NCBI GenBank assembly: GCA_963526645.1
Contig: CAUROG010000007.1
Coordinates: forward strand, 63,607-127,606
Direction of reading: 5' to 3'
DNA: 64,000 nt
From: an uncultured Pelosinus sp.
GTDB taxonomy: Bacteria; Bacillota; Negativicutes; DSM-13327
Shown: positions 45,533 through 64,000 of the stretch, piece by piece
How the letters are laid out: each line of letters starts with the position of its first letter
Numbering within the stretch: position 1 is the stretch's first letter
The notes under the pieces: generated by a model
The model's database searches: none
What the model saw: the letters and a program-made list of their open reading frames with translations, nothing else
Told to the model about the DNA's origin: nothing
Position numbers and translations under genes: made by a program

Positions 45533-45606
45533 GACGAAAAATGGGAGGCCTTGAACAATATAATGTTCAAGGCTACCGAAATATATAGTAATGAAAGGAG
45601 ACGGTT

Positions 45607-46449: not shown

Positions 46450-46517
46450 AAGTCGCAATTAAGGTTTTTGATTTGATGATAAAAATCCAAAAAAACATGA
46501 GATAAGGAGGAGTTTGA

Positions 46518-47921
46518 ATGGATAAGCAATGCAATTTAACTGTTGAGCAACACATTACTAACCTCGTTGAAAGATCAAGAAAAGCCCAAGCTGTTGCCGA
46601 GCACTATAGCCAAGAAAAAGTAGATGAATTGGTGACTGCCATTGTATGGAATATTGTTAAAGATGGGCCAGCTCAAATTATTTCTCAAATGGCTGTTGAT
46701 GAATCCCAAATGGGAAATTATGAATCTAAATATGCAAAATTGATGACAAAATGCAAAGGTACACTTCGGGATATGTTAGGTGAAAAATCAGTTGGTGTTA
46801 TTGAGAAAGATGAAAAAAAGGGAATCTTCAAGGTTGCCAAACCTGTAGGCGTAGTAGCTGGAATATTACCTTGCACCAATCCAGAAGCTACACCCGTAAT
46901 CAAAGCGATCATGGCAATCAAGACGAGAAATGCCATTATACTCGCGCCGCACCCCAGGACGAAAAAGACGAATACTTACATTGTAAATTTAATAAGAGAT
47001 ACGCTGAAAAAATATAATGCACCAGAGGATTTGGTCATTGGAATTGAAGAGCCTTCTCTTGATTTAACCAATGAACTGATGAAGCAATGTGATTTAGTTG
47101 TTGCGACAGGTGGTGGAGCTTTAGTAAAGTCGGCATATTCATCGGGAACTCCCGCCTACGGCGTCGGACAAGGAAACTCAGTCGTTGTGGTAGACGAAAC
47201 TGCGGATTTGAAGGATGCGGGGAATAAGGTAATGCGTAGTAAAACCTTTGATTTCGCCACAAGTTGTTCCACTGAAAATTCACTGGTTATTCAGAAGAGT
47301 GTTTATGCTGAATTTATACAATGTCTTAAAGACGAAGGCGGTTATTTGCTTAGCCCTGAAGAAAAAGCAAAATTACAGCAAGCCATGTGGGTAGATAATC
47401 ATTTGAATGCTAGGATTATTGCGCAGTCAGTGCAAACAATTGCTAAAGTAGCTGGGATTAGTATACCAGAGGATCGTAAATTTATTATGGTGGAAGAAAC
47501 GGGAATTGGCCCTGATGCTCCTTTTTCTGGTGAAAAATTATCCATGGTAGTCGCCTTATATCAATACGATGATTTTCAAGAAGCAATCGACCATGTTAAT
47601 ATGATTACCAACTATCATGGTAGAGGGCATTCCTGTGGAATTCATTCTTTTAATGAAGAACATATCAGTCAACTGGCACTAGCTACAAAGACCAGTAGAA
47701 TTATGGTTCGTCAGCCTCAATGCCTAGCTAATAGCGGCGCATGGACAAATGGTATGCCAATGACTTTGACATTAGGTTGCGGAACTTGGGGAGGAAATGC
47801 CTCTTCTAGCAACATAACATGGAAAAACTTATTGAATATAACATGGGTTTCTTCCCCAATAGAGCATAGTATGCCAACTGATGAAGAGTTATTTGGCGAG
47901 ATTATGCTTGAAAATAACTAG
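46518..47921 (+). CDS. CoA-acylating aldehyde dehydrogenase (AdhE-N/EutE/SauS-like)
   Basis: PCTNP, ATGG, GVGQGN, SKTFDFATSCSTEN, EKLS and LGCGTWGGN motifs. Confidence 0.85.
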   Translation: MDKQCNLTVEQHITNLVERSRKAQAVAEHYSQEKVDELVTAIVWNIVKDGPAQIISQMAVDESQMGNYESKYAKLMTKCKGTLRDMLGEKSVGVIEKDEKKGIFKVAKPVGVVAGILPCTNPEATPVIKAIMAIKTRNAIILAPHPRTKKTNTYIVNLIRDTLKKYNAPEDLVIGIEEPSLDLTNELMKQCDLVVATGGGALVKSAYSSGTPAYGVGQGNSVVVVDETADLKDAGNKVMRSKTFDFATSCSTENSLVIQKSVYAEFIQCLKDEGGYLLSPEEKAKLQQAMWVDNHLNARIIAQSVQTIAKVAGISIPEDRKFIMVEETGIGPDAPFSGEKLSMVVALYQYDDFQEAIDHVNMITNYHGRGHSCGIHSFNEEHISQLALATKTSRIMVRQPQCLANSGAWTNGMPMTLTLGCGTWGGNASSSNITWKNLLNITWVSSPIEHSMPTDEELFGEIMLENN

Positions 47922-47982
47922 CGTTTATTATTTTATTTATATTTTAGGCCTAGATTTACCATAGGGAAGAGAGGGGTGTGTT

Positions 47983-49554
47983 ATGGTCAAGATAATTACT
48001 GCGGCAGAAGCGGCTAGCCTCATTAAAGATGCTGCCACAATTGCTACGAGTGGTTTTGTTGGTAGTGCAAATCCCGAGGCACTAACCGTTGCATTGGAAG
48101 AGAGATTTCTTAGAGAAAGCAGACCACGTAATTTAACACTTGTTTATTGTGCAGGTCAAGGTGATGGTAAAAACTGTGGAGCCAATCACTTTGGCCACGA
48201 GAATATGGTGAAAAGAGTAATTGGTGGACATTTTAAGACAGCTCCGAAATTGACTAATTTAGTAGTAGATGAAAAAATTGAGGCTTATAATTTTCCTCAG
48301 GGAACCCTTACTCATTGGTTTCGAAATGTTGCTGGAAAAAAACCGGGTGTTATTACGAAAGTTGGCTTGAATACTTTTGTTGACCCAAGGGTTGAGGGTG
48401 GGAAAATTAACAAAAAGACCACTGAGGATCTTGTAGAAGTCATTCAATTAGGGGGGGAAGAATGGCTTTGGTATAAGCCTTTTCCAGTAGATGTAGCTTT
48501 AATTCGTGGGACTTCTGCAGATGAGATTGGCAATATCTCGATTGAAAAAGAGGCTGTTTCACTAGAAATTCTTTCAATCGCACAGGCTGTCAAAAATTCT
48601 GGCGGTATTGTTATTGTGCAGGTAGAGCGTATCGTTAAACCTGGTAGCTTACATCCGATGAATGTAAAAGTTCCGGGAATGATAGTTGACTATATTGTTG
48701 TATCTGAACCAGTCAATCATATGCAGACCTATTCGGAACAGTATAATCCTGCATATTCAGGAGAAATAAAACTATCATCCTTGTCAAATAATTGTGTCAT
48801 GTCTTTAGATGAACGCAAGATTATTGCTCGCCGTGCTGCGATGGAGTTGATTCCCGATGCGATTGTAAACCTTGGTATTGGTGTCCCTGAAGGGGTAGCA
48901 ATGGTAGCCAATGAAGAAGGTATGGGGCACATTATGACTCTTACCGTTGAAGCTGGCCCCGTGGGGGGGATTCCTGCCGGCAATCTAAGCTTTGGGGCTT
49001 CCAGTAATGCAGAGGCCATATTAGATCAACCTTATCAATTTGACTTTTATGATGGTGGCGGTCTTGATCTGGCTTTTCTGGGGTTAGCTGAGACCGATAA
49101 ACATGGCAACATAAATGTAAGTAAGTTTAAAGGCTATGTGGCTGGCTGTGGTGGTTTTATTAACATTACACAGAATACAAAAGATGTTATTTTTCTTGGT
49201 ACCTTTATGGCTGGTGGCTTGAAAGTAAAGATAACTGATGGTCAATTGCATATCATCACAGAAGGGCGCAATAAGAAATTTATTGATCATGTTGAACAAA
49301 TTACTTTTAGTGGCAAGTATGCCCAACAAAGCAATCAATCGGTTATGTATATTACCGAACGTGCTGTATTCCACCTAACACCCGAGGGCATGGTTTTGAC
49401 AGAAATCGCTCCGGGGATCGATCTAGAAAAAGATATATTAGCACTTATGGATTTTAAGCCAATTATAGCTCCAGACCTTAAATTAATGGACGCTCGCATT
49501 TTTAGAAAAGAAAAAATGGGATTAAGCGAGATGTTGTTAAGGTGTGGAAAGTAA
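47983..49554 (+). CDS. pct: Propionate CoA-transferase type (family I, fused subunits)
   Basis: KVGLNTFVDPR, NLGIGVPE, VEAGPVGG, QFDFYDGGGLD and GCGGFINI motifs. Confidence 0.88.
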   Translation: MVKIITAAEAASLIKDAATIATSGFVGSANPEALTVALEERFLRESRPRNLTLVYCAGQGDGKNCGANHFGHENMVKRVIGGHFKTAPKLTNLVVDEKIEAYNFPQGTLTHWFRNVAGKKPGVITKVGLNTFVDPRVEGGKINKKTTEDLVEVIQLGGEEWLWYKPFPVDVALIRGTSADEIGNISIEKEAVSLEILSIAQAVKNSGGIVIVQVERIVKPGSLHPMNVKVPGMIVDYIVVSEPVNHMQTYSEQYNPAYSGEIKLSSLSNNCVMSLDERKIIARRAAMELIPDAIVNLGIGVPEGVAMVANEEGMGHIMTLTVEAGPVGGIPAGNLSFGASSNAEAILDQPYQFDFYDGGGLDLAFLGLAETDKHGNINVSKFKGYVAGCGGFINITQNTKDVIFLGTFMAGGLKVKITDGQLHIITEGRNKKFIDHVEQITFSGKYAQQSNQSVMYITERAVFHLTPEGMVLTEIAPGIDLEKDILALMDFKPIIAPDLKLMDARIFRKEKMGLSEMLLRCGK

Positions 49555-49599
49555 TAAAAAAATTGCCCTACGGGGTTAGAGAATTAGGAGGAATTATTT

Positions 49600-50739
49600 A
49601 TGAATTTTGTATTGACACAAGAACAAGAGGATATTCGCAAAATGGTAAGGGAATTTGCCGAAAAATCGGTGGCCCCAACTGCAGCAGAAAGAGATGAAAA
49701 GGAATACTTTCCTCGTGAAATTTTTGATCAAATGGGTGAACTAGGAATTTTAGGTTTACCTTATCCTGAAGAATATGGCGGAGCAGGTAGTGATTTTTTA
49801 AGTTACGCGATTGCGGTAGAAGAAATCTCTCGAGTATGTGCATCAACTGGTATTGGAACTTCCGTTCACATATCCCTTGCTTCTTGGCCAATATTTAAGT
49901 ATGGAACTGAAGAACAAAAACAAAAGTATTTAAGACCACTGGCTGAGGGTACAAAATTAGGAGCATTTGGCTTAACGGAGCCAAATGCAGGTACTGATGC
50001 TTCGGCGGCAACTACAGTGGCAGTTAGAGATGGAGATAGTTATATTCTTAATGGATCTAAGGTTTTTAATACTAATGGTGGAGAAGCGGAAATTGAAGTT
50101 GTTTTTGCTTCTACCGACAAAGCGGCTGGGTTAAAAGGCTTGAGTGCTTTTATTGTAGAAAAAGGTACTCCTGGACTTAGCTTTGGGAAAAAAGAAGTTA
50201 AAATGGGTATTCGCTCTTCCGTGCAACGGGAAGTTATTATGGAAAATTGTCGTATTCCAGCAGAAAATCTGCTTGGTAAAGAGGGAGCTGGCTTTAAAAT
50301 TGCTATGACTGCTTTGGATGGCGGCCGAATTGGTGTTGCAGCGCAAGCAGTTGGTATTGCTCAGGGGGCTCTAGAAGAAGCAATAAAATACTCTAAAGCA
50401 CGCGTACAATTTGGGAAGCCGATTGCTAGTAATCAAGCAATAGCCTTTAAACTCGCTGATATGGCAACTAAAGTGGAAGCGGCAAGGTTGTTGACTTATA
50501 AGGCAGCATATCATAAATCACATAATCTACCTTATTCCAAGGAAGCTGCTATGGCAAAAATGGTTGCTTCTGATGCTGCTATGTCAGTAACGACAGATGC
50601 TGTGCAAGTCTTTGGAGGTTACGGTTACTCCCGTGAATATCCTGTTGAGCGCATGATGCGGGATGCCAAAATCACGCAGATATATGAAGGAACAAATGAA
50701 GTGCAACGTATGGTTATCTCTGGGGCTATTTTACGATAA
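49600..50739 (+). CDS. Short-chain acyl-CoA dehydrogenase (Bcd/AcrC-like), probable acrylyl-CoA reductase
   Basis: [19 protein letters not shown] and IYEGTNEVQ motifs. Confidence 0.9.
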
Positions 50740-50956
50740 TTTTAATCTGTCTCATAAAGCGTACGATGTCAATTAGATAGAGAACATTATTATGAGTAAA
50801 TGGTTGTAGCAGTATGTATAGGTCGCGCTGGATCCCTGTTATTAACGATTTTCTCATAATAGCAGAGATCCCGCGATTGGACTTAATCTCCAAGAAAAAA
50901 ATGGCGAAATTCTTTAAAATATCCTACACTATCTATAATTTAGGAGGCAGTAAAAA

Positions 50957-51742
50957 ATGGAAATCATTGTTTGTATCAAGCAAGTGCCTGATACTACCGA
51001 AGTAAAGATTGATCCAGTCACAAATACCTTGATTCGTCAAGGTGTGCCCAGTATTGTAAACCCTTTCGATAAAAATGCTGTAGAAGCAGCTTTGCAGTTA
51101 AAAGAGAAGCATGGCGGTAAGGTTACTGTTATTTCCATGGGACCACCACAAGCTAAAGATGCACTAAAAGAGTGTCTTGCAATGGGGGCTGATAGCGCAA
51201 TTCTTATTAGTGATCGTGCCTTTGGCGGATCTGATACCTTGGCTACTAGCTATACATTAGCGGCAGCTGTGCGCAAACTTGGTACTTATGATATTATTTT
51301 CTGCGGTAAACAAGCGATTGATGGCGATACTGCTCAAGTTGGGCCAGAAATGGCAGAGCATTTAGGTATTTCCCAAATTACGTATGCTGCTAAGATTGAT
51401 GTTGATGGTAATACTGTTCGTGTGGAACGTGAACAGGAAGAGGGCTACGAAATTATTGATGTGGAGTTCCCAGTAGTTATCTCGGTAGTAAAAGCGATGA
51501 ATGAACCACGTTTTCCTAGCATCAGAGGTACAATGAAAGCCAACCGTGCAGAAATTCTTGTATGGACGGCAGCCGATCTTGATGTGAATGAACAACAACT
51601 TGGATTAAAGGGATCACCGACTCAGGTTCGTAAAATATTTACTCCACCCCAGCGTACTAATGGTGTATTGATTCATAAAGATACAGCACGGGAAGCGGTG
51701 GCTGAATTGATAAAAAATCTGTCTGATGCAAAAATTGTGTAA
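50957..51742 (+). CDS. etfB: Electron transfer flavoprotein beta subunit
   Basis: CIKQVPDT, SDRAFGGSDTLATS and GKQAIDGDTAQVG motifs. Confidence 0.95.
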   Translation: MEIIVCIKQVPDTTEVKIDPVTNTLIRQGVPSIVNPFDKNAVEAALQLKEKHGGKVTVISMGPPQAKDALKECLAMGADSAILISDRAFGGSDTLATSYTLAAAVRKLGTYDIIFCGKQAIDGDTAQVGPEMAEHLGISQITYAAKIDVDGNTVRVEREQEEGYEIIDVEFPVVISVVKAMNEPRFPSIRGTMKANRAEILVWTAADLDVNEQQLGLKGSPTQVRKIFTPPQRTNGVLIHKDTAREAVAELIKNLSDAKIV

Positions 51743-51761
51743 AAGGGGAGAAAATTGAGTA

Positions 51762-52958
51762 ATGGCGGTAAAAGTAATAAAAGAATCATGTATTTCCTGT
51801 AGTGCCTGCGTTTCTGCATGTCCATTTGGTGCTATTGTGATGCAAGATGATAAAGCGTTTATAACAGAAGCCTGTACCGTTTGTGGTGTGTGCGTTGACA
51901 CTTGCCCTGTTGAGGCAATTGAGAAAGAAGTAGAAGTTAAAGAGGTCACTGTAGATATAAATGAATACAAAGATGTTTGGGTTTATCTAGAGACTGTAGA
52001 TGGTAAGTTGCGCAACGTTAGTCTCGAATTACTTGGTGAAGGTCGTAAATTAGCTGATACTATGGGGCAAAAGTTGTCAGGTGTTCTGATTGGCAACAAT
52101 GTAAAAGATTTAGCAAAAGATGTTTTCGCTTCTGGTGCTGATCAAGTGTACTTAGTGGAAGCGGTAGAATTAGAACATTACAGTACGGATGGTTATACTG
52201 CTACTTTAGTTGATTTAATTCAACAATATAAACCATCAGTTATCCTTGTGGGTGCAACTAATAACGGTAGGGATCTTGGACCGCGTGTAGCTTGTCGAGT
52301 TGGCACGGGATTAACAGCAGATTGTACCGACCTTGGCATTGACGAAGCGACAGGACTTGTTTCTTGGACTCGCCCGGCTTTTGGCGGCAATATTATGGCA
52401 ACGATTCTATGCCCTGAACATAGGCCCCAGATGGGTACCGTTCGTCCATCTGTATTTAAAAAGCCAGAATTAGATACGAATAGAAGCGGAGAAATTATCC
52501 ACGTAGCCAGTAAGGTGAAAGCAGAAGATATTCGTACTAGGCTTGTTGATATTATTCGTGTTGCTGCTGTTTCTTGTAATTTAGAAGAAGCGGAGATCAT
52601 TGTATCTGGCGGTCGAGGATTATGTAAGCCTGAAAATTTCTCCCTAGTAGAGGAATTGGCTAATGTCCTTGGTGGATCTGTAGGAGCATCTCGTGCTGCT
52701 GTAGATGCTGGCTGGAAGCCTTCATTGCATCAAGTAGGACAGACGGGAAAAACTGTAGGACCGAAAATTTATTTTGCTTGTGGAATTTCTGGTGCCATTC
52801 AACATTTAGCAGGAATGTCATCTTCGGATCTCATCATTGCGATCAATAAAGACCCTGATGCACCAATCTTTAAAATGGCTGATTATGGTATTGTTGGTGA
52901 TGTTATGGAAGTGCTTCCTATTTTGACTGCGGAATTTAAAAAACTAAAAGCATGTTAA
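51762..52958 (+). CDS. etfA: Electron transfer flavoprotein alpha subunit with N-terminal 2x[4Fe-4S] domain
   Basis: CISCSACVSACP and CTVCGVCVDTCP; TRPAFGGN, QVGQTGK and GISGAIQH motifs. Confidence 0.95.
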   Translation: MAVKVIKESCISCSACVSACPFGAIVMQDDKAFITEACTVCGVCVDTCPVEAIEKEVEVKEVTVDINEYKDVWVYLETVDGKLRNVSLELLGEGRKLADTMGQKLSGVLIGNNVKDLAKDVFASGADQVYLVEAVELEHYSTDGYTATLVDLIQQYKPSVILVGATNNGRDLGPRVACRVGTGLTADCTDLGIDEATGLVSWTRPAFGGNIMATILCPEHRPQMGTVRPSVFKKPELDTNRSGEIIHVASKVKAEDIRTRLVDIIRVAAVSCNLEEAEIIVSGGRGLCKPENFSLVEELANVLGGSVGASRAAVDAGWKPSLHQVGQTGKTVGPKIYFACGISGAIQHLAGMSSSDLIIAINKDPDAPIFKMADYGIVGDVMEVLPILTAEFKKLKAC

Positions 52959-53011
52959 GGTTTTAGTAACAAGTTCTAGGAACGTCATAAAGAAAAACAG
53001 AGGTGAATATT

Positions 53012-53797
53012 TTGAGTGAGTATGAGAATTTATTACTTGAAATTGAAGATGGTATTGGATTTGTAACGATTAACCGTCCGAAAGCATTAAATGCACTGAA
53101 TGCTGCTACTATACGTGACTTGGATTGTATCTTTGATGTATTAGCCCAGGATAATGAAGTGAAAGTAGTTGTTATTACTGGCAGCGGTGAGAAATCCTTT
53201 GTGGCTGGCGCAGATATTACTGAAATGCAATCAATGTCTGCTGTCCAAGGGAGAACTTGGGCAAAGATGGCGCAAGCTGTATTCAACAAAATTGAGAATT
53301 TACCAAAACCAGTTATTGCTGCCGTGAATGGCTTTGCACTCGGTGGTGGCTGCGAATTAGCTATGGCTTGTGATATTCGTATCCTTTCTGAAAAAGCCAA
53401 GCTTGGCCAACCAGAAGTGTCATTAGGTATACCACCTGGATTTGGTGGAACCCAGCGTTTAGCAAGACTAGTGGGCAAAGGACGAGCGAAAGAATTGCTC
53501 TTTACGGGTGAAATGATTGATGCAGCTGAAGCCTATCGTATTGGGTTGGGGAATAAAGTAGTGGCTCCTGAGGAGCTTATAAATGTCACTAAGGCTATGG
53601 CACAGAAAATCATGTCTAGAGCGCCTATTGCTGTTCAGGTTTCTAAAGCAGCAGTCAATGAAGGCCTTGATGTTGATCTTAAGTCGGGTGTAGCCTATGA
53701 AGCAGAGGTATTTGGCCTGTGTTTTGCAACAGATGACCAAAAAGAGGGAATGACTGCTTTTGTAGAAAAACGCAAACCTAATTTTATTGGTAAATAG
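53012..53797 (+). CDS. crt: Short-chain enoyl-CoA hydratase (crotonase), probable 3-hydroxypropionyl-CoA dehydratase
   Basis: FVAGADI, LGGGCE and GQPEVSLGIPPGFGGTQRL motifs; TTG 53012 after GAGGTG. Confidence 0.9.
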   Translation: MSEYENLLLEIEDGIGFVTINRPKALNALNAATIRDLDCIFDVLAQDNEVKVVVITGSGEKSFVAGADITEMQSMSAVQGRTWAKMAQAVFNKIENLPKPVIAAVNGFALGGGCELAMACDIRILSEKAKLGQPEVSLGIPPGFGGTQRLARLVGKGRAKELLFTGEMIDAAEAYRIGLGNKVVAPEELINVTKAMAQKIMSRAPIAVQVSKAAVNEGLDVDLKSGVAYEAEVFGLCFATDDQKEGMTAFVEKRKPNFIGK

Positions 53798-53839
53798 GCT
53801 GATTTGTATCGCTAATTCCGATAACTTGGAAGATTAGTT

Positions 53840-53890
53840 GTAAGACGAAAAGTCATATCCTATTTTTAGGATATGACTTTTCTGTCTTAC
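53840..53890 (+). terminator. Long hairpin/terminator closing the first iol operon
   Basis: GTAAGACGAAAAGTCATATCCTA/TAGGATATGACTTTTCTGTCTTAC. Confidence 0.75.
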
Positions 53891-54103
53891 ATAAATGCAA
53901 CTAAAGTTCTCATGTTTTTAATGATGATCAGCCATAATTGAAATTTGATAGGAATAATATGTAAATGTGAGAAAACAAGTCATTAAAATAAACAAAGAAT
54001 TTTGTTTATTTTTGTAGAGGGATAAAGCTAAAAAGTAGTAACTTATAGATCTATCAACATAGAAAAAGGGATAAAAGTTTCGAGATAAAAGACAATTTTA
54101 ATA

Positions 54104-54198
54104 TTGCAATTATTCTCTGCATGAATTAGAATATAACTATGAAGTGATAAAAACGAATCAACATATAACCAATACATAACCAATATAAAACAAATAAT
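54104..54198 (+). promoter_or_regulatory. Promoter of the second iol operon with four tandem 11-bp repeats
   Basis: TTGCAA-N17-TAGAAT; GAATCAACATA TAACCAATACA TAACCAATATA AAACAAATAAT at 54155-54198. Confidence 0.7.
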
Positions 54199-54229
54199 TA
54201 ATAATTAAGTATTAAATGTAAAGAGAAGG

Positions 54230-55393
54230 ATGATAATTGTGGCACATGTATTTTTAATCCCTCGGACCATTATTGCAGGGAAAGAGGCATTAACAAAAGC
54301 GGGTTCATACTTAAAGGGCTCTGGAAAAAAAGCACTTATTGTTACAGATAAAATCATGGTTACGATTGGAAACGTTCAAAAATTGATTAACATATTGGAT
54401 GAACAGGATATCAAGTATGAATTATATGCAGATATCAATAGTGAGCCTACTGATAAAATGGTCTATCAGGGAGTCAAAATTTATAAAGAAACCAATTGTG
54501 ATTTTCTGATAGCGATAGGTGGAGGCAGTCCGATTGATACGATGAAAGCAATTGGAGCAATGCTGACAAATCCAGGAACATTAGCCGATTATATGGGAAA
54601 AGAAATTACTGCTCTACCGCCTGCATTAATTGCCATACCAACAACGGCTGGAACTGGCTCCGAGGCAACCCAGTACACAATCATATCTGATACACAGACC
54701 GACGTAAAAATGCTTTTAAAAGGGGCGCCCTTATTACCTGCATTGGCAATTGTAGATCCAGATTTAACGCTTACCTCACCGCCAATGGTTACAGCAGCGA
54801 CTGGCATTGATGCTTTAACTCATGCTATAGAAGCATATACGTCTAAAAAATCACAACCTATGTCAGATACCTTTGCGATTTCAGCAGTTAAGAGAGTCTT
54901 TAAGAGTCTTTTAAAAGCTTATAAAGATGGAACTGACATTGAAGCAAGAGAAGAAATGTCGATAGCTGCACTGGAGGCTGGCATCGCTTTTAATAATTCT
55001 TCTGTGACCTTAGTTCATGGGATGAGTAGACCAATAGGAGCACTTTTCCATGTACCACATGGATTGTCTAATGCAATACTGCTCTATCATTGTTTGGGAT
55101 TTGCTTTGCAAGGAACTCCAGAAAAATTTTGTGAGCTAGCCAAGGCAATCGGTGTTTATGAAAACGGTATGAGTGATATGCAAGCTGGACAGACATTTAT
55201 AAATGAAGTTGAGAGATTATGTTGCATGTTAAATATTCAAACCTTAGCAGAATTTGGTGTAGATAAAAAAAGGTTCTTTGAAAATCTAGACAAAATGGCA
55301 GAAGATGCTTTAGCTAGTGGTAGTCCGCAAAATACAATAAAAAGTATAAATAAAGAAGAGATCATGAACATTTACAAAGCTTTATGGAATTAA
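54230..55393 (+). CDS. Iron-containing alcohol dehydrogenase, probable malonate-semialdehyde reductase
   Basis: GGGSPID, PTTAGTGSE, DALTHAIE and VHGMSRPIGALFHVPHG motifs; start may be GTG 54239. Confidence 0.88.
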   Translation: MIIVAHVFLIPRTIIAGKEALTKAGSYLKGSGKKALIVTDKIMVTIGNVQKLINILDEQDIKYELYADINSEPTDKMVYQGVKIYKETNCDFLIAIGGGSPIDTMKAIGAMLTNPGTLADYMGKEITALPPALIAIPTTAGTGSEATQYTIISDTQTDVKMLLKGAPLLPALAIVDPDLTLTSPPMVTAATGIDALTHAIEAYTSKKSQPMSDTFAISAVKRVFKSLLKAYKDGTDIEAREEMSIAALEAGIAFNNSSVTLVHGMSRPIGALFHVPHGLSNAILLYHCLGFALQGTPEKFCELAKAIGVYENGMSDMQAGQTFINEVERLCCMLNIQTLAEFGVDKKRFFENLDKMAEDALASGSPQNTIKSINKEEIMNIYKALWN

Positions 55394-55466
55394 CTAAAAT
55401 TAAAGGAATTAGGGAATAAACGTAAAAGCATATTTGCTAGAGAAGATAATTGTAAGGAGAATAAGA

Positions 55467-56483
55467 ATGAAATATATTAGCATTGATAATAGTAGAAAGT
55501 TAGATGTTGTGCCTATTGGTAGAGTTGCAATTGATTTTAATCCTGTGGATATCAATAAAACCCTTGCGGAAAGTACAACCTTTAAAAAATATGTGGGTGG
55601 ATCTCCAGCGAATATCGCAGTAGGTCTTGCTAGATTAGGTAAAAAAGTAGGATTTGTTGGAAAAATATCGAAAGATAGATTTGGTGAATTTGTTACTGAT
55701 TATTTTACAAAAGAAGGCATTGATACTTCTCAAATTTATGAAGCGAAAAATGGAGAATCTTTAGGTCTTACTTTTACTGAAATACTTAGTCCTACAGAAA
55801 GCAGCATTCTCATGTATAGAAATGACATTGCTGACTTAAGTTTGGAAGTAAGTGAAATTGATGAAGAATATATTAAAAATACAAAAGCAATTGTGATCTC
55901 TGGAACAGCATTAGCCAAAAGTCCTTCTAGAGAGGCTACTCTAAAAGCATTGGAATATGCAAAAAAACACAATACAATTGTTATTTTTGATATTGATTAT
56001 CGGGAATATACTTGGCTTAATAAAGATGAAATTGCAATTTATTATTCTATTGTTGGTAGGAATAGTGATTTGGTAATTGGATCTCGAGAAGAATTTGACT
56101 TAATGCAAGGTTTAATGACCCAAGATAACAGTGATGAAGCAATTGCACAAAGATGGCTTTCCTATGGAAATAAAATAGTGGTTATTAAACATGGGAAAGA
56201 TGGTTCTACAGCATATACTGAAGATGGAAAAAATTATAATATTAAGCCGTTTCCAGTTAAACTTCTTAAGTCTTTTGGAGGTGGGGATGCTTATGGATCA
56301 GCCTTTATTTATGGTCTTTTAGAAGGTTGGGATGTAATAGACTGCCTAGAATTTGGCAGTGCTTCAGCTGCTATGTTAGTTGCTAGTCATAGTTGTTCAG
56401 AAGCAATGCCGACTGTTGAAGAAGTAAAAGAATTTATAAGAAAAAGCAAAGCAGAACATGGGGATATGGTAGCAAGAATGTAG
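55467..56483 (+). CDS. iolC: 5-dehydro-2-deoxygluconokinase
   Basis: GRVAIDF, YVGGSPANIA, DIDYR and FGGGDAY motifs. Confidence 0.93.
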   Translation: MKYISIDNSRKLDVVPIGRVAIDFNPVDINKTLAESTTFKKYVGGSPANIAVGLARLGKKVGFVGKISKDRFGEFVTDYFTKEGIDTSQIYEAKNGESLGLTFTEILSPTESSILMYRNDIADLSLEVSEIDEEYIKNTKAIVISGTALAKSPSREATLKALEYAKKHNTIVIFDIDYREYTWLNKDEIAIYYSIVGRNSDLVIGSREEFDLMQGLMTQDNSDEAIAQRWLSYGNKIVVIKHGKDGSTAYTEDGKNYNIKPFPVKLLKSFGGGDAYGSAFIYGLLEGWDVIDCLEFGSASAAMLVASHSCSEAMPTVEEVKEFIRKSKAEHGDMVARM

Positions 56484-56494
56484 GAGGATTGATT

Positions 56495-57283
56495 ATGATC
56501 CATAATATAGGTGAATTAAAACAAGGTTTAAATTCATTGTGTGAAATTAATGGAAAAAATAAAGAAATGCTAATGGATATCAGCATTATAAAGCTGGATA
56601 AAGAAGTCAATGAATTGTATTATCAGCAAGATAAAGAAATGGCTATCTTACTGCTAGAGGGCAAGGTAAAAATCAAATGGTCAGCTAGAGAAGAAGTAAT
56701 TGAAAGAAGATCTGTATTTGATGAGAATCCTTGGTGTTTGCATGTTCCAAAAGAAACAGAGGTTACTGTTGAATTTTTAGAAGCAAGTGAAATCCTCATT
56801 CAATGTACTGAAAATAAGAATAACTTTGAAGATAAGCTATATGGCCCTAATGACTGTAAAAGTGATATTTTTGGCGAAGGCGTTTGGAATGATGTTGCTA
56901 GACGGGTAGTGAGGACAGTATTTGATTACAAGAATGCTCCTTATTCGAATATGGTTATGGGTGAGGTAATTACGTATCCAGGTAAATGGTCAAGTTACCC
57001 GCCGCATCATCATCCACAGCCTGAAGTATATTATTATAAATTTAATAAACCCCAAGGTTTTGGATTGTGTTTGGTTGGTGAAGATGCTTATAAAATTAAA
57101 GATAATAGCTTTTTAGCAATACCAGGAGGATTAGTTCATCCACAGACATCTGCTCCTGGGTATGCAATGTATTACTGCTGGATGATAAGGCACTTGGATA
57201 ATAATCCATGGACAGATCGGATTGATGATGAAGATCATACGTGGTTGTTGGATAAAGATGTAAAAATATGGCCTGCTAGATAA
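56495..57283 (+). CDS. iolB: 5-deoxy-glucuronate isomerase
   Basis: GKWSSYPPHHH..PEVYYY motif. Confidence 0.92.
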   Translation: MIHNIGELKQGLNSLCEINGKNKEMLMDISIIKLDKEVNELYYQQDKEMAILLLEGKVKIKWSAREEVIERRSVFDENPWCLHVPKETEVTVEFLEASEILIQCTENKNNFEDKLYGPNDCKSDIFGEGVWNDVARRVVRTVFDYKNAPYSNMVMGEVITYPGKWSSYPPHHHPQPEVYYYKFNKPQGFGLCLVGEDAYKIKDNSFLAIPGGLVHPQTSAPGYAMYYCWMIRHLDNNPWTDRIDDEDHTWLLDKDVKIWPAR

Positions 57284-57357
57284 GAAATTTCGAAAATATA
57301 ATGATAACAAATTATTCGCAATTCTTATAATTATTACTTATTTTGGAGGGTGTTTGT

Positions 57358-59295
57358 ATGGCTACAACGAAAATGACTGTGGCACAAGCGTTAATTAAAT
57401 TTCTAAATCAACAGTATATTGAGGTTGATGGGAAAAAGAGCAAATTTGTACGAGGTATTTTTACCATTTTTGGACATGGTAACGTGGTTGGTATTGGACA
57501 GGCATTGGAAGAAGTCAATGATGGTCTGGAAGTATATCAAGGCAGAAATGAGCAGGGGATGGCACATGCTGCTGCGGCTTATGCAAAACAGAAAAATAGA
57601 AAACAAATTTATGCCTGTACCACATCTGTAGGACCTGGTGCTGCTAATATGCTTACTGCAGCAGCAACAGCCACTGCAAATAACATTCCTCTATTGTTAC
57701 TACCTGGTGATGTCTTCGCAACAAGACAGCCTAACCCTGTATTACAACAAATAGAGCAGACCTATAATTTATCGATTTCAACGAATGATGCTTTTAAGGC
57801 TGTGAGTAAGTATTGGGATCGTGTCGACCGACCTGAACAACTTATGACAGCTATGATTAATGCGATGAGGGTGTTGACAAATCCGGCAGAGACAGGCACT
57901 GTAACCATTGCTTTACCCCAAGATGTTCAGGGAGAGGCATATGAATTTCCTGATTATTTCTTCAAAGAACGGATTCACAGAATTGATAGATGCTATCCTT
58001 CACAGGCTGCAATCAAAGATGCTGTTGATATCATAACGCGAAAGAAAAAACCACTTATTATTTGTGGTGGCGGGGTTCGATATTCAGAAGCCGGCATCGC
58101 TTTAAAAGCATTTGCTGAAAAATTTAATATTCCCTTTGCTGAAACTCAAGCAGGGAAAAGTGCTGTTGAAGACAGTCATTCATTGAATTTAGGTGGTGTT
58201 GGAGTAACTGGGAATTCCGCAGCTAATGAAATTGCAGGTGAGGCTGACCTCGTAATTGGCATAGGAACAAGGTTTACTGATTTCACTACAGGATCAAAAA
58301 GCGTATTTAAAAATGAGAATGTTGAGTTTTTAAATATTAATGTATCCGAGTTTCATGCTGAGAAATTAGATGCTGTTAAGATGGTTGCTGATGCAAAGGT
58401 TGCCTTGGAGTGCTTGAATGAACAATTGGAACAATTAGGATATAAATCGGCGTATACAACAGAAATACGCCATGCAAAGACTGATTGGGATCAAGAATTG
58501 GAACGGTTGTATAATATTGAATATCAAAAAGAGGGATTCGTTCCCGAAAATCCAGGTTGTTTTAGTGAACAAGAAATAAATGAATATAGTGCTGCACTGC
58601 AATCATGCTTAACGCAAACAGCCGTAATTGGTGAGCTTAATAAAATGTTGTCTAAAAATGCAGTTATTATAGGGGCAGCGGGAAGCTTGCCAGGGGATTT
58701 ACAACGTATGTGGAAAGCTGAAGAAATAGGTGCTTACCATATGGAATACGGATATTCATGCATGGGATATGAGGTTTCAGGGGCGTTGGGTGTTAAACTG
58801 GCGGAACCGGAAAAAGAAGTGTTTGCCATGGTGGGTGATGGAAGTTATTTGATGTTGCATTCCGAACTTGTAACAAGTATGCAGGAAGGCATAAAAATAA
58901 ATGTATTATTGTTTGATAATATTGGCTTTGGTTGTATTAATAATTTGCAAATGGGCAATGGTATGGGAAGTTTTTGTACAGAGTTTAGAAAACGCAATGA
59001 GAAAAGCGGTAAATTAGATGGCGAACTTATGAAAATAAATTTTGCCAAGCAGGCTGAAGGATATGGGGTAAAAACATATTCAGTATCCACGTTAGAAGAG
59101 TTAAAAGTCGCAGTTGAAGATGCCAAGAAACAGCAAATATCAACATTAATTGATATTAAAGTGTTACCAAAGACTATGACTCATGGCTATGGAGCAGGAT
59201 GGCATGTTGGCATCGCTGAGTTGTCGTCAAATCCTAAAATTAATGCTGCTTATGAGCAGAAAGAAGAGCTTTTAGCAAATGCAAGAAAGTATTGA
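57358..59295 (+). CDS. iolD: 3D-(3,5/4)-trihydroxycyclohexane-1,2-dione acylhydrolase
   Basis: [24 protein letters not shown] and GDGSYLM motifs. Confidence 0.95.
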
Positions 59296-59334
59296 GAAAC
59301 ATTTAATACGAAATGATGGGAAGGTGGAGAAATT

Positions 59335-60360
59335 ATGTTGAAAATTGGTATTATTGGTGCTGGTAGAATTGGAAAAGTACATGCGGAAAGTATTAGTAAC
59401 TTTGTTAAGGGAGCGGAAGTAAAAGCAATTGCTGATCCGTTTTTAAATGAAGATACAAAAGAGTGGGCTAAGACAATGGGGATAGAGCACGTATATACTG
59501 ACTATCAGAAGATTATAAATGACTCTGAGATCGATGCAGTATTAATTTGCTCCTCAACAGATACACATTCACCGATTTCCATTGAGGCAATCAATGCGGG
59601 TAAACATGTATTCTGTGAGAAACCCATTGATCATGATGTAGAAAAAATTAAAGAAGTAATAAAAGCAGTTGAGGCCTCTAAATGCAAATATCAGGTTGGC
59701 TTTAACCGCCGATTTGATCACAATTTTAGATCAGCTAAGGAAGCTGTAGCAGCAGGCAAAATTGGAACACAGCATGTAATTAAAATTACCTCCCGTGATC
59801 CAGAAGCGCCGCCTATTAGTTATGTTAAAGTATCAGGCGGAATGTTTCTTGACATGACGATTCACGATTTTGATATGGTTCGCTATTTGTCAGGTAGTGA
59901 AGTGGTAGAAGTCTATGCTGTAGGTGGAGTATTAGTGGATTCTGCTATCGGTGAAGCTGGCGATATTGATACGGCAATCATCACAATGAAACTAGAAAAT
60001 GGTGCTATGGCAGTAATTGATAATTGTAGACGTGCTTCTTATGGTTATGACCAGCGAGCAGAAGTCTTTGGATCTAAAGGAGCGGTAGAAATTGGCAATG
60101 ATACTTCTTCTACTGCCGTATTAAGTACTACTGATGGTGTTGTTGCTGAAAAGCCACTACATTTCTTCCTTGAAAGATATATGCAGGCTTATGCTAATGA
60201 AATCAAAGAATTCATTGAAGCTATCGTAGAAAATAAAGATGTTCCAGTTACAGTGATAGATGGCTTAGAACCTGTAATTATTGGACTTGCAGCAAAAAAA
60301 TCCATAGCTGAAAATAGGCCAGTAAAAACTGCAGAAATCAAAAGAACTTTTGGTTTGTAA
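59335..60360 (+). CDS. iolG: Inositol 2-dehydrogenase
   Basis: GAGRIG, CEKP, GFNRRFD, DMTIHDFD and YGYDQR motifs. Confidence 0.93.
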   Translation: MLKIGIIGAGRIGKVHAESISNFVKGAEVKAIADPFLNEDTKEWAKTMGIEHVYTDYQKIINDSEIDAVLICSSTDTHSPISIEAINAGKHVFCEKPIDHDVEKIKEVIKAVEASKCKYQVGFNRRFDHNFRSAKEAVAAGKIGTQHVIKITSRDPEAPPISYVKVSGGMFLDMTIHDFDMVRYLSGSEVVEVYAVGGVLVDSAIGEAGDIDTAIITMKLENGAMAVIDNCRRASYGYDQRAEVFGSKGAVEIGNDTSSTAVLSTTDGVVAEKPLHFFLERYMQAYANEIKEFIEAIVENKDVPVTVIDGLEPVIIGLAAKKSIAENRPVKTAEIKRTFGL

Positions 60361-60497
60361 TACATTTACAGATCAAAAAGATTAAATAAGTTTTAAATTT
60401 TGGCGCAATTTATGCAATCTTTCTTCTCTTCTTTCTCTTGACTGATTGCATATTTTGCGCCAGACATAATATGAATGCCACATAAGGGGATGGAAAA

Positions 60498-61394
60498 ATG
60501 TTTGATACAACAAAAGTTAAGCTAGGCATTGCTCCTATTGCATGGACGAATGATGACATGCCAGATTTAGGCAAAGAAAATACTTTTGAACAGTGTGTAA
60601 GTGAAATGGCGTTAGCTGGCTTTAGAGGCAGTGAAGTGGGGAATAAGTATCCTAAAAATACTGAAATTTTAAAAAAATCACTACAACTTCGTGGAATTGA
60701 AATAGCTAGTGCTTGGTTCAGTTCTTTTCTAACGGTAAAGCCATTTGAAGAAGTTGCATTAGCATTTAAAGAACATCGTGATTTTTTATATGAAATGGGC
60801 GCAAAGGTAATTGTTGTCTCAGAACAGGGGCATAGCATTCAAGGTCAATTGGATATGCCGATTTTTGCGAAGAAACCCCATTTCAATGAAGCAGAATGGA
60901 AAAAGCTCGCTGAAGGATTAAATAAATTAGGTGAGTTAGCACAAGAAAAAGATATGAAAGTCGTATACCATCATCACATGGGTACAGGTGTTCAAACAGC
61001 GAATGAAATTGAAAAATTAATGACTATGACGGATGATAAATTAGTATACTTGCTGTTTGATACAGGTCATTTAGTATTTTCCGGTGAGGACCATTTAATG
61101 GTTCTAAATAAACATATTAATAGAATTAAGCATGTGCATTTGAAAGATATTAGGTATGAATTAATTGATACAATTAAGACTTCAAACATTAGTTTCTTGG
61201 ACTCTGTAAGACTAGGTGTGTTTACTGTTCCAGGAGATGGATGTATTGATTTTGTACCAGTATTCAAAGCACTTGCAGAGCATAACTATGAAGGTTGGTT
61301 TATTGTGGAAGCCGAGCAAGATCCTGAGAAAGCTAATCCACTTGAGTATGCATTAAAAGCAAGAGCTTATATACAAGAAAAGGCTGGCCTTTAA
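60498..61394 (+). CDS. iolE: Myo-inosose-2 dehydratase
   Basis: [24 protein letters not shown] and VEAEQDP motifs. Confidence 0.95.
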
Positions 61395-61564
61395 AAATAT
61401 AATCTCCTTGGTTCGTGTAAGAACTATATTCATTTGCATAGAGTTAAGAAGAGAATGATATTGATATAGTGGAAATTAGGCGGATTTAGTACATATATAG
61501 TTAATCAGAGAATTATCAAGGGAATAACTGTATATGTACTAATACTTAAAAAGGAGTGGAAAAA

Positions 61565-62938
61565 ATGAACTTATTTAAATGGTTTCTAACTGGTGAAGAC
61601 AAGCCACGAATTCAAGATCCTACAGTAGTGGATAAAATGTTCACTAAGGCTCGATTCCAGGGCGTTACTGCGATGATTATTGGTTATGGTATGTATTATG
61701 TAACGCGAATGACTCTTGGTGTTGTCAAAAAGCCTATGATGACTGAAGCTGGATTTACTGGAACTGAATTAGGAATTATTGGATCAGCTATGCTTATAGC
61801 GATAGCTTTTGGCAAATGTTTTAACGGATTTATTGCTGATCGATGTAATGTAAAAAAGATCGTGCCACTTGGTTTACTTGGAGCTGCTGTTGTTAACATT
61901 ATATTAGGATTTACGCCTTGGTTTTGGGCATTTGCAATTCTTTGGTTTTTAAATGGTTGGTTTCAATCCATGGGTTCTGCACCTTGTATAGTTTCCTTGA
62001 CCCAGTGGTTTTCAAAGCGTGAAGTCGCAACACAATATGGTGTATTTAGTATTGCGCATTATATTGGTGAGGGTGCAACCTTTGTCGGTACAGCATTGTT
62101 AATAGTTCATTTTGGCTGGAAATCAGCATTTTATATTCCTGGGTTAGTATGCCTGTTTCTTGCTTTTGCTATGTATAAATTTATGTATGATCGTCCACAG
62201 GCATATGGTTTACCTTCAGCAAATGAGTATAAAGGTGAAGTCACCGAAGTGAAGAAAGAAAAGAGCAAAACAACCAAAGAAGCACAAATGGAAGTAATCA
62301 AGAATCCGTATGTGTGGTTGATTGCTTTTAGCGCTACTTTTATGGGGATTGCTCGCTACTCAATGAATAGTTGGGGAGTCGTTTTTCTACAAGAATGTAA
62401 AGCCTATGATTTAGTATCAGCGGGCAGCGTGCTGGCAATGGTACCTCTTATGGGTGGCGTAGGATCGTTCCTTTCTGGCTACATTTCTGACAAAATATTT
62501 AAATCAAATCATGCACTAACAACGATCGTTTTTGGATTGGTAATGCTAGGGGGTATTGTAGGATTTTGCTACACTCCACCTGGACATCAAATGTTAGACA
62601 CCGTGTATGCATCTATCTTTGGCTTTGGGTTAGGTGTTATATTATGTTTTATCGGCGGTATGCTTGCAGTAGATCTTTGTTCCCAAAAAGCAGCTGGTGC
62701 TGCAATGGGAACCGTTGGGTTATTGGCTTATGGTGGCGCAGCTCTGCAGGATGTCCTTAACGGTGTGATGATGGATGCAAGTAAACTTGTTGTGAATGGT
62801 AAAGTTACTTATAACTTTGATAATCTTATTATGTTTTGGATGGGTTCTGTCGCAATCATGGTACTGATGATAGTACCAGTATTGTGGGCAAAGAAAAAGG
62901 ATAAGACGATAGACGAATCTTTAAACTGCAATAGTTAA
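61565..62938 (+). CDS. MFS organophosphate:Pi antiporter family (GlpT/UhpT/UhpC-like)
   Basis: GYGMYYVTR, NGWFQSMG, WFSKRE, DRPQAYGLP and GIARY motifs. Confidence 0.85.
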   Translation: MNLFKWFLTGEDKPRIQDPTVVDKMFTKARFQGVTAMIIGYGMYYVTRMTLGVVKKPMMTEAGFTGTELGIIGSAMLIAIAFGKCFNGFIADRCNVKKIVPLGLLGAAVVNIILGFTPWFWAFAILWFLNGWFQSMGSAPCIVSLTQWFSKREVATQYGVFSIAHYIGEGATFVGTALLIVHFGWKSAFYIPGLVCLFLAFAMYKFMYDRPQAYGLPSANEYKGEVTEVKKEKSKTTKEAQMEVIKNPYVWLIAFSATFMGIARYSMNSWGVVFLQECKAYDLVSAGSVLAMVPLMGGVGSFLSGYISDKIFKSNHALTTIVFGLVMLGGIVGFCYTPPGHQMLDTVYASIFGFGLGVILCFIGGMLAVDLCSQKAAGAAMGTVGLLAYGGAALQDVLNGVMMDASKLVVNGKVTYNFDNLIMFWMGSVAIMVLMIVPVLWAKKKDKTIDESLNCNS

Positions 62939-62954
62939 TTTGAGGTAAACATTA

Positions 62955-63662
62955 ATGAAATTAATTGCTGATTTGCATACCCATACCCTTGCTTGCAGAC
63001 ATGGATTTAGTACAGTTACCGAAGTAATTCGTGCTGCGGCTAATTGTAAGCTGCAAGCAGTGGCTTTGACAGAACATGGCCCAGGTTATCCTGGAAGCGT
63101 TGGTCACGCTTACTTTAATACGTATCGTGATATTCCTTCAGAAATGTTTGGAATCTCTGTATTGAAGGGGTGCGAGGCCAATATCATGAATTTTGCTGGG
63201 GAATTGGATTTTGATGAGAAACCGTTGTCTCAATTGGATATAGTGATTGCCAGTTGTCACAAAGAGGTAACACCGATAGGTACGATTGAGCAAAATACTG
63301 CAATGTACATTGCAGCAATTCAAAACCCTTATGTGGATATTATCGGTCATCCGGATTTCCCTCTGTATCCTATTGATATAGAAGCGGTAGTTAAAGCTGC
63401 TGCTGTAAGTGGTGTTGCTTTAGAAGTTAATAATAGCTCACCAGCAGCTCGTCCAGGTAGTGAAGAGATGTGTGCCGAAATTATTTGCACTGCTAAACGT
63501 CTAGGTGCTAAATTAGCAGTTGGCTCGGATGCGCATTATCATCTTGTGGTAGGGAACTTTGATTATGCATATGAAATGCTTGGTAAATATGATTACCCGC
63601 TAGAGCAAGTAATCAACTCTTCAATGGATAAGCTTCTTTCTCATCTTAAACGCAATCGATAA
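62955..63662 (+). CDS. PHP-family phosphatase (YcdX-like)
   Basis: DLHTHT, LTEHGP, GCEAN, IIGHP, EVNNSS and GSDAH motifs. Confidence 0.88.
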   Translation: MKLIADLHTHTLACRHGFSTVTEVIRAAANCKLQAVALTEHGPGYPGSVGHAYFNTYRDIPSEMFGISVLKGCEANIMNFAGELDFDEKPLSQLDIVIASCHKEVTPIGTIEQNTAMYIAAIQNPYVDIIGHPDFPLYPIDIEAVVKAAAVSGVALEVNNSSPAARPGSEEMCAEIICTAKRLGAKLAVGSDAHYHLVVGNFDYAYEMLGKYDYPLEQVINSSMDKLLSHLKRNR

Positions 63663-63715
63663 GTCTAATTAGGTAAACTCTTAAAAAGACTAAAACGGTA
63701 AAGGTTGTTTACATG

Positions 63716-63754
63716 ATAATTCACAAGATGCAGAGCTCTGTATCTTGTGAATTA
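63716..63754 (+). terminator. Hairpin/terminator after the PHP gene
   Basis: TAATTCACAAGATGCAG/CTGTATCTTGTGAATTA. Confidence 0.65.
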
Positions 63755-63966
63755 CTAAAAAAGACTGACTAATGGATACGTAAAATAAATTACTTTACAG
63801 TCAGCTATATTAATAAATTTACTTTTTACGCAGAACTATTTAAAAATTTCCTCACAAGGTTATTAGATAGCCTGTGTTATTTTATATATGTCTATAATTC
63901 TATATCTAAAATAGCATTGAGAATATCTTTTAGAAATGTGGGGGAACGACGACAAGGGGGCAAAGG

Positions 63967-64000
63967 ATGAGCTATTTAGCTAGCATTTTGAATGGTCCTT
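63967..64000 (+). CDS. Possible start of a gene cut by the window edge
   Basis: AAGGGGG RBS-like sequence, ATG, open to the end (MSYLASILNGP...). Confidence 0.3.
   Translation, partial: MSYLASILNGP

Follow-up and report, generated by a model that had tools for sequence, protein, structure and literature searches.

What does a carrier of the organophosphate:phosphate antiporter (OPA) type move across the membrane when its gene lies directly downstream of genes for inositol breakdown? The question is raised by a 64,000-nucleotide stretch of DNA from an uncultured Pelosinus sp. (hereafter the window; C7:63607-127606 in its own genome, G000; other G, L and C labels denote genomes, loci and contigs). 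Near its end the window carries P0001, a carrier of the major facilitator superfamily (MFS; 61565-62938, + strand, 457 aa, ATG after an AAGGAG site), followed after 16 nt (62939-62954) by a YcdX-like PHP phosphatase, P0002 (62955-63662, + strand, 235 aa). The first 34 nt (63967-64000, + strand) of P0123, a metallophosphoesterase resembling purple acid phosphatases (PAP-like), close the window; the full gene, C7:127573-130494, encodes 973 aa. Judged from sequence and gene context, P0001 is a candidate inositol-phosphate:inorganic phosphate (Pi) antiporter, and it is rather likely that it exchanges an incoming inositol monophosphate, probably inositol 2-phosphate (Ins(2)P), for Pi and that the phosphate is then removed inside the cell. 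An earlier note on this DNA had proposed import of an inositol phosphate with the PHP enzyme as partner. Import and intracellular dephosphorylation are strengthened by secreted phytases and by the near-restriction of the carrier clade to genomes with both iolE and phytase, whereas the constant partner is the PAP-like enzyme and not PHP.

The closest solved relative of P0001 by sequence is E. coli GlpT (1pw4, E 6.6e-54, about 28-30% identity). The same structure ranks first in a Foldseek search with the predicted fold (pLDDT 87.6, TM 0.80), and the ten best fold matches are all GlpT or G6PT. P0001 nevertheless reaches the cut-off of none of the OPA models (TIGR00881 247.8/407.75, UhpC 239.4/564, GlpT 231.7/632.55, PgtP 165.5/750, UhpT 136.9/497; bits/cut-off), and its only Pfam match is MFS_1. 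It is not among the PF00083 or PF00474 matches of G000 and carries none of the IolT/IolF, SSS or ABC signatures. The carrier thus appears related to OPA carriers but outside their modelled set, and its clade would constitute a separate OPA subfamily.

The two arginine-containing motifs on which the earlier description of the carrier rested, YYVTR (residues 44-48) and GIARY (261-265), were confirmed in the alignment, where R48 and R264 correspond to GlpT R45 and R269; ORF coordinates and hydropathy likewise bear out its position 16 nt before a signal-less PHP protein. The cationic relay R48/K84/H165/R264 is present (equivalents of GlpT K80-R45-R269 plus H165), and the residues equivalent to GlpT Y38, Y42, R45, K80, H165, R269 and Y393 are all kept. 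The rest of the pocket is changed: W138/W161/Y266/E299/Y362 of GlpT are S/F/G/P/G in P0001, and W161F, N162S, N166Y, G169E, Y266G, E299P and Y362G extend throughout the clade, whereas W161, N166 and Y266 are retained in the alignment by paralogs of 35-40% identity. In OPA carriers K80-R45-R269 is a conserved phosphate relay and the sugar subsite is variable (PMC12552596). A conserved relay with a remodelled second subsite would fit a monophosphate with a different ring. The GlpT R45 position is Lys in 6/25 orthologs; in all Negativicutes clade rows of the alignment R48 pairs with I80 and K48 with Y80, and changes at these two positions of the phosphate site may compensate each other. Assignment as a GlpT equivalog was rejected on the score below cut-off, the changed pocket residues and the lack of glpQ linkage (the GDPD-linked gene is a paralog on contig C23), and UhpT, UhpC and PgtP equivalogs on scores below cut-offs and the lack of two-component gene neighbours.

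The carrier is placed between genes for periplasmic phytate breakdown and genes for cytoplasmic inositol breakdown. The iol/phytase cluster (the island) is cut by the window and extends about 15 kb beyond its end, to C7:143154. On the same strand, P0123 is followed by two PTP-like phytases and an MCP chemoreceptor. Then come three iol-type genes, encoding a Hyi-like isomerase, a second IolG-like dehydrogenase and a further TIM-barrel isomerase-like protein, and after these a probable porin, the third PTP-like phytase and a beta-propeller phytase. The island's last gene encodes a secreted metallophosphoesterase and is followed by a gene that we take to be glycerate-kinase-like. The three PTP-like phytases (91.8, 90.9 and 93.7 bits against PF14566, cut-off 27) carry the HCxxGxGRT loop and hydrophobic N-termini, and the first has the tandem phytase 3f41 as its nearest solved structure; the beta-propeller phytase scores 484.5 bits against PF02333. 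These four enzymes and the last metallophosphoesterase are the five signal-bearing genes past the window, as judged by a simple hydropathy check (not SignalP) that was also used for P0002 and P0123. The porin-like protein (C7:138552-139634; Atlas neighbours Porin_4/Porin_5) and the dCache chemoreceptor (C7:133081-135078) recur beside phytases in related loci, and are candidates for a phytate channel and an inositol(-phosphate) sensor, respectively.

Carrier orthologs were found in 26 of the 301 Negativicutes genomes surveyed, distributed patchily over 13 genera. They are set apart by a score gap, with at least 64% identity and more than 670 bits for orthologs and at most 43% and fewer than 390 bits for the next full-length matches; a contig-edge fragment at 56% identity in G022 was excluded from clade counts. 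In a quick tree on 79 rows (rows <400 aa or >93% identical dropped) the clade is monophyletic (SH-aLRT 100). Named members come from Mitsuokella, Megasphaera, Megamonas, Anaerovibrio, Selenomonas and Pectinatus, and the clade also includes named Clostridium and Scrofimicrobium proteins; context for the Clostridium/actinomycete members is given by one metagenome contig (L112), in which the carrier precedes a PAP-like gene. The nearest named ortholog, from Pelosinus propionicus, is 97% identical. A phylum sample of 401 genomes gave five matches, all of them already-counted Negativicutes, and a plasmid search gave 39 records, all below 60% identity to the carrier (best about 38-40%).

Co-occurrence with iol genes, which had been suggested as a check, was confirmed: iolE is present in 26/26 clade genomes against 54/301 overall, and the carrier in none of the 247 genomes without iolE. 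PTP-like phytase is found in 92/301 genomes. The clade occurs in 25 of the 36 genomes having both iolE and PTP-like phytase, in 1/18 with iolE only, in 0/56 with phytase only, and in 0/191 with neither. All 13 genomes with at least three PTP-like phytase domain matches carry it, and G300 is the only clade genome without such a match. In the stretches from the 25 other genomes, iol genes were seen in 19 and PTP-like phytases in 16, adjoining the carrier in these 16 loci.

The gene immediately following the carrier is PAP-like in 18 of these 25 genomes and PHP in seven, and a PAP-like gene lies within four genes downstream in all 25. Among metagenome loci, 74/80 pass 55% identity; PAP-like genes are found within four genes in 66/74 and PHP within two genes in 15, where six of the 74 loci stop at the carrier and many are near-duplicates. 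PAP-like, adjacent PHP, phytase and iol genes are absent from 14/14 control loci of 35-40% paralogs. UhpAB-like two-component genes were not seen beside the clade, the usual regulator being an AraC protein or an IolR-like repressor.

The PAP-like family, held by 27/301 genomes, is present in 26/26 carrier genomes, and its sole other holder is G255. The constant module is therefore the carrier with the PAP-like enzyme; PHP is not constant. P0123 comprises FN3-like, MPP, Ig-like and LamG domains, and its N-terminal half (FN3-like and metallophosphoesterase) matches plant PAPs (Foldseek E 5e-17, profile E 8.5e-13). The calcineurin-like motifs DxH, GD, GNH, H and GHxH are present (PF00149 56.3/21.5), and D113, GD139-140, GNHD174-177, HH269-270 and GHxH296-299 are invariant columns in 42 sequences. 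The iron-binding Tyr of GDxxY is missing (GDISL in P0123, GDISF in the family consensus), so the enzyme is not "purple". P0123 has no hydrophobic N-terminus, and carrier-adjacent relatives begin 7-11 residues ahead of the conserved GPYL motif when upstream starts are discounted; relatives of 1005-1200 aa bear signal peptides. The family is small (123 clusters at E 1e-30) and seems to occur in cytoplasmic, secreted and S-layer-anchored forms. G000 itself has a signal-bearing paralog (54%) at C7:43381-46296 (L183:11277-16514), which adjoins a second PAP-domain protein, an SBF carrier and a LarA-like gene.

P0002 is closest to YcdX (1m65, E 7e-45), scores just below the cut-off of PRK09248 (261.5 bits, cut-off 264) and above that of PF02811 (44.5/26.4), and lacks a hydrophobic N-terminus. 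Nine His/Asp/Glu metal-site residues are kept in the computed alignment (H8, H10, H16, H41, E74, H102, H132, D192, H194), at positions that we take to be the PHP metal ligands. In a tree with long branches, the carrier-linked PHPs group separately from both E. coli YcdX and the YcdX-like paralog on contig C24 of G000. The loci that supply their sister group also supply that of the carrier. This mirroring of the two trees indicates that the carrier-PHP pair is old and predates the phytate island. The subclade (>270 bits) is found in 11/26 carrier genomes, adjacent in eight and at unrelated places in three. The carrier-PHP pair is accordingly real and old, but adjacency in only 8/26 genomes, against a PAP-like partner in 26/26, makes PHP an old, often lost, accessory partner. 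Perhaps it serves another isomer, or is redundant with the PAP-like enzyme; a literature search found no substrate for YcdX.

Combined, these features suggest the following route. Phytate would enter the periplasm, perhaps via the island porin, and the three secreted PTP-like phytases and the beta-propeller phytase, as assigned by family scans, would reduce it to lower inositol phosphates. The carrier, in which scaffold and relay are observed, would take inositol phosphate in and Pi out. Inside the cell, the signal-less PAP-like enzyme of about 970 aa, aided in some lineages by PHP, would remove the last phosphate, and free myo-inositol would enter the IolG/E/D/B/C pathway and be fermented. 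We lean slightly towards Ins(2)P as the main substrate overall, with InsP2/InsP3 or other isomers covering the rest. The PAP-like enzyme has a somewhat better than even chance of being the main cytoplasmic phosphatase, a role that is unlikely for PHP.

Published work on phytate bears on several of these steps. Acid phytases, cysteine phytases included, are described as ending at Ins(2)P, and beta-propeller phytases at Ins(2,4,6)P3 (PMC12406696). Mitsuokella jalaludinii accumulates Ins(2)P as an intermediate, and its "inositol transporter" is up eight-fold on phytate relative to inositol (De Vos et al. 2024, PMC7618129); proteins named Mitsuokella fall within the carrier's clusters. According to a 2025 review, no other human gut isolate dephosphorylates phytate completely; the process has two steps, via Ins(2)P, and section 7 of the review assigns no specific enzyme or carrier to the second (PMC12482443). 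That the module is not known as characterised was upheld: no description of an inositol-phosphate antiporter was found in the literature searched, most subscription journals being outside its reach, and the available parts of PMC12838507, PMC9430895, PMC10982552, PMC3981807 and PMC13311982 contain no such module. It is real and conserved, and apparently undescribed.

Several observations weigh against import of a phosphorylated inositol. Free myo-inositol is found in M. jalaludinii cultures, for which the proposed model is complete periplasmic dephosphorylation (PMC7618129), and GPH and other carriers in g27 clusters are alternative candidates for the M. jalaludinii transporter MJ_0380. Secreted phosphoesterases of G000 (the C7:43381-46296 paralog and the island's last gene) could finish dephosphorylation outside. 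The Fisher p value of 7e-6 overstates the co-occurrence, as kin are not independent. Among the 28 iolE-positive genomes without the clade, 11 have PTP-like phytase (one being G022, with its fragment), so the carrier is not required for that combination. In a sister clade (about 49% identity; L167, L175, L176; relatives named Victivallales) the carrier is paired with PHP, and these three loci are without iol, phytase and PAP-like genes. GlpT E299 is lost and R45 replaced by Lys in the six orthologs, so coupling may differ from that of GlpT. The near-universal inositol monophosphatase/SuhB family PF00459 was not found in G000, while the same search was positive in 14/14 control genomes; it is present in 4/53 iolE-positive Negativicutes (3/25 with the carrier, 1/28 without). 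Absence of this family was therefore rejected as a discriminator, since most of the Negativicutes tested lack it, whether or not they have the carrier.

The alternative that survives best is one in which the substrate derives from phosphatidylinositol (Ins(1)P, cyclic Ins(1,2)P or glycerophosphoinositol) and the PAP-like enzyme is a phosphodiesterase. Calcineurin-like enzymes are often diesterases, and the PAP-like family, in G255 together with the PHP subclade, is found beside an unrelated MFS carrier and a PI-PLC-X-like protein in G255, G279, G300 and G118; G300, the clade genome lacking a PTP-like phytase match, has this second module. The module nonetheless brings its own carrier, its MFS and PI-PLC-like proteins were not found in G000, and the clade tracks PTP-like phytases in 25/26 genomes, adjoining them in the 16 loci noted above. 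No PI-PLC-like or GDPD gene is seen in the island. Of the sources considered in the earlier note, phytate is favoured and phosphatidylinositol or glycerophosphoinositol is less favoured. We consider this alternative improbable. The second module consists of an AraC regulator, an unrelated 462-aa MFS carrier, a PI-PLC-X-like protein and the PAP-like family, with PHP added in G255 only (G255 contig C51, L184:1588-8559; also L192, L193, L194, L123 and L127), and may import a phosphatidylinositol breakdown product.

A still lower probability is given to transport of free myo-inositol or another inositol isomer, with dephosphorylation completed in the periplasm. P0001 is the sole inner-membrane carrier in the island, and its orthologs are so in the examined stretches of G168, G176, G216 and G200; the loss of E299, the free inositol in M. 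jalaludinii cultures (PMC7618129) and the secreted phosphoesterases point the same way. Yet the membrane-embedded R/K48, K84, H165 and R264 are kept across the clade, a cytoplasmic phosphatase always follows, only 1/18 iolE-positive, phytase-negative genomes has the clade, and sugar carriers of ABC or GPH type coexist in 12/25 clusters and on contig C5.

This touches on the claim that the carrier stands in place of an inositol permease. Within the island it holds: among the ORFs from iolR through the last phosphoesterase no second inner-membrane carrier was seen, in agreement with the earlier observation of a sole transporter. It does not hold for the genome, as C5:3852-9668 of G000 contains a second iolD and an iolE-like remnant (read by eye) together with a sugar ABC system. 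This system matches those of four other iol clusters at 60-86% identity and, from its position, is likely an importer of free inositol. An ABC or GPH carrier was also found in 12/25 other genomes, within the 14-40 kb examined around the clade gene or iol genes, with sugar or inositol as substrate suggested by position. The OPA carrier thus mostly adds to an inositol permease and does not replace it.

An ordinary carrier of GlpT/UhpT/PgtP type (for glycerol-3-phosphate, hexose-6-phosphate or phosphoglycerate), present in the cluster by chance and with PHP as its phosphatase, is very improbable. It would agree with the sister clade, in which GH4, GH65, PfkB and sugar ABC genes, but none for iol, surround carrier and PHP, and with the presumed glycerate-kinase-like gene after the island. 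The characterised OPA members in the available part of PMC9306846 all carry such substrates (glycerol-3-phosphate, hexose-6-phosphates, phosphoglycerates and phosphoenolpyruvate), and inositol phosphate is not among them there. Against this stand the scores below all family cut-offs, the change of all of W138, W161, Y266 and Y362, and iolE in every clade genome against 54/301 overall. In addition, G000 has a separate OPA paralog (38%) on C23 that follows a GDPD remnant, and 5/14 control paralogs have a GDPD homolog no more than three genes away; the glpQ-linked C23 paralog probably covers glycerol-3-phosphate. The C5 ABC system and the C23 paralog together favour a distinct phosphorylated substrate for the island carrier. 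Least probable of all is a UhpC-like sensor of external inositol phosphate or a plain exporter of phytate-released Pi. Of the named NCBIfam models UhpC matches best (239 bits), and members are labelled "UhpC-like" by JGI, but the score is far under the cut-off of 564, UhpAB-like neighbours are lacking, and neither function explains the constant cytoplasmic phosphatase.

Taking P0001 as an inositol-phosphate antiporter, its resemblance to known systems can be drawn in parts. With GlpT, UhpT, UhpC, PgtP and human G6PT (SLC37A4) it shares the MFS fold and the relay residues, and its pairing with a phosphoester hydrolase recalls the functional coupling of G6PT to a phosphatase (PMC12552596); unlike its OPA relatives it lies in an iol/phytase island and not with glpQ or uhpAB. 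P0002 shares nine metal-site residues and length with E. coli YcdX (1m65) but belongs to a separate subclade. P0123 shares its FN3-like and metallophosphoesterase half with plant PAPs and phytases (wheat 6gja, kidney bean 4dsy), from which it differs by the absence of the GDxxY Tyr and of a signal peptide, by about 580 extra residues (Ig-like, LamG) and by an identity of 15-18%. With classical iol clusters (B. subtilis, Salmonella; IolT-type carriers) the island shares iolG, E, D, C and A-type genes, but it has no sugar-porter and combines its iol genes with phytases and an OPA carrier. A periplasmic PTP-like phytase and iol genes are common to the island and M. jalaludinii, where the Ins(2)P intermediate and the phytate-induced transporter are described; the model for that species leads from periplasmic phytase to Ins(2)P and inositol, and its available text mentions neither an OPA carrier nor a cytoplasmic phosphatase (PMC7618129). 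Beyond that pathway, the island encodes a beta-propeller phytase and probably a propionate branch of its own.

The sequences suggest that these anaerobes of gut, rumen and soil may take up the inositol phosphate that remains at the end of phytate breakdown and dephosphorylate it internally. As a wider proposal, held tentatively and at slightly less than even confidence, the clade would be the first known to exchange inositol phosphate for Pi, and its 970-aa partner would found a new family of cytoplasmic inositol-2-phosphatases. Together they would perform the last step of complete phytate fermentation in Mitsuokella, Megamonas, Megasphaera, Selenomonas, Anaerovibrio, Pectinatus and Pelosinus relatives and would secure Ins(2)P before its inositol becomes available to neighbours. 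The phosphatase would also have been recruited to the second, PI-PLC-fed module. If true, this would give the OPA family a new substrate class, provide a possible Ins(2)P phosphatase for the step at which acid phytases reportedly stop (PMC12406696), and decide whether phytate inositol is shared or captured in gut and rumen. The module makes the last step of complete phytate fermentation directly testable: the carrier and the PAP-like enzyme are two expressible candidates for the second step of phytate dephosphorylation, and their genes a marker set predicting Negativicutes that ferment phytate fully.

Upstream of the carrier, the iol genes lie on the + strand: iolE (60498-61394, myo-inosose-2 dehydratase, TIGR04379 434.8 bits, cut-off 290), iolG (59335-60360, inositol 2-dehydrogenase, TIGR04380 490.9, cut-off 355), and iolC, an iolB-like gene and iolD (55434-59295; TIGR04382 417.9/300, TIGR04378 110.6/205, under cut-off, and TIGR04377 963.5/715). 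A DeoR/GlpR-family, IolR-like regulator (42876-43634, - strand) is divergent from iolA. The block at 44015-55393 (+ strand) runs from an iolA-type MMSDH, above the cut-off for this dehydrogenase, through a class II aldolase (IolJ-like), an acylating aldehyde dehydrogenase, a CoA-transferase, an acyl-CoA dehydrogenase with two subunits that we take to be Etf-like, and a crotonase, to an Fe-alcohol dehydrogenase. The acyl-CoA dehydrogenase, within 46518-55393, is acryloyl-CoA-reductase-like but below cut-off (536.7/640 bits). The block is probably a route from the inositol C3 fragment to propionate, and one cell may run phytate to propionate, a conversion reportedly divided between Mitsuokella and Anaerostipes. 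The aldehyde dehydrogenase, CoA-transferase and crotonase were not seen in the examined stretches of the 25 other genomes.

Two further genes recur in related loci. In several loci the PAP-like gene is followed by that for a 389-aa protein (L060:15532-16698 and seven relatives), a candidate periplasmic phosphohydrolase whose Tat signal and HD-domain match are both weak. A 471-aa membrane protein (L179:7562-8974 and relatives), without a Pfam or NCBIfam match, follows iolE or the PAP-like gene in 9/25 genomes and is possibly an acid exporter or another carrier.

Regarding transcription, a promoter and terminator scan of 53500-64000 gave 37 and 6 sites, where shuffled sequence gave 39.0 and 6.4, hence no signal, and no terminator-like or sigma70-like site was found between iolE and the carrier. 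A search for shared 16-mers in 18 intergenic regions disclosed A/T-rich noise only. Sequencing runs matching locus L078 (21 runs, 15 recorded as RNA) were not used as evidence: in four runs of one study and one organism, contigs fill 30/30 bins and one per run spans the junction from carrier to PAP-like gene, but the libraries may contain DNA, contig depth does not allow the genes to be ranked and the growth conditions are not stated. An 18-bp stem-loop lies between iolE and the carrier ribosome site (61486-61542, + strand; z -6.06, 0/200 shuffles as stable), with no U-tract after it. Its loop contains a tandem WWAYCA-N5-WWAYCA repeat (61502-61518), which presumably resembles an IolR box and is taken as a lead only. 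In a pattern defined after seeing those sites, six of the 25 intergenic matches fall in 3,732 of 724,225 bases; by eye, the tandem is not evident upstream of carrier orthologs. A 17-bp stem-loop between the PHP and PAP-like genes (63717-63754, + strand; z -5.45, 0/200 shuffles) is likewise not followed by a U-tract. Long stem-loops, several without U-tracts, were also observed at 50740-50956, 53798-54229, 60361-60497, 61395-61564 and 63663-63966, and the stem-loops of the island may tune transcript stability.

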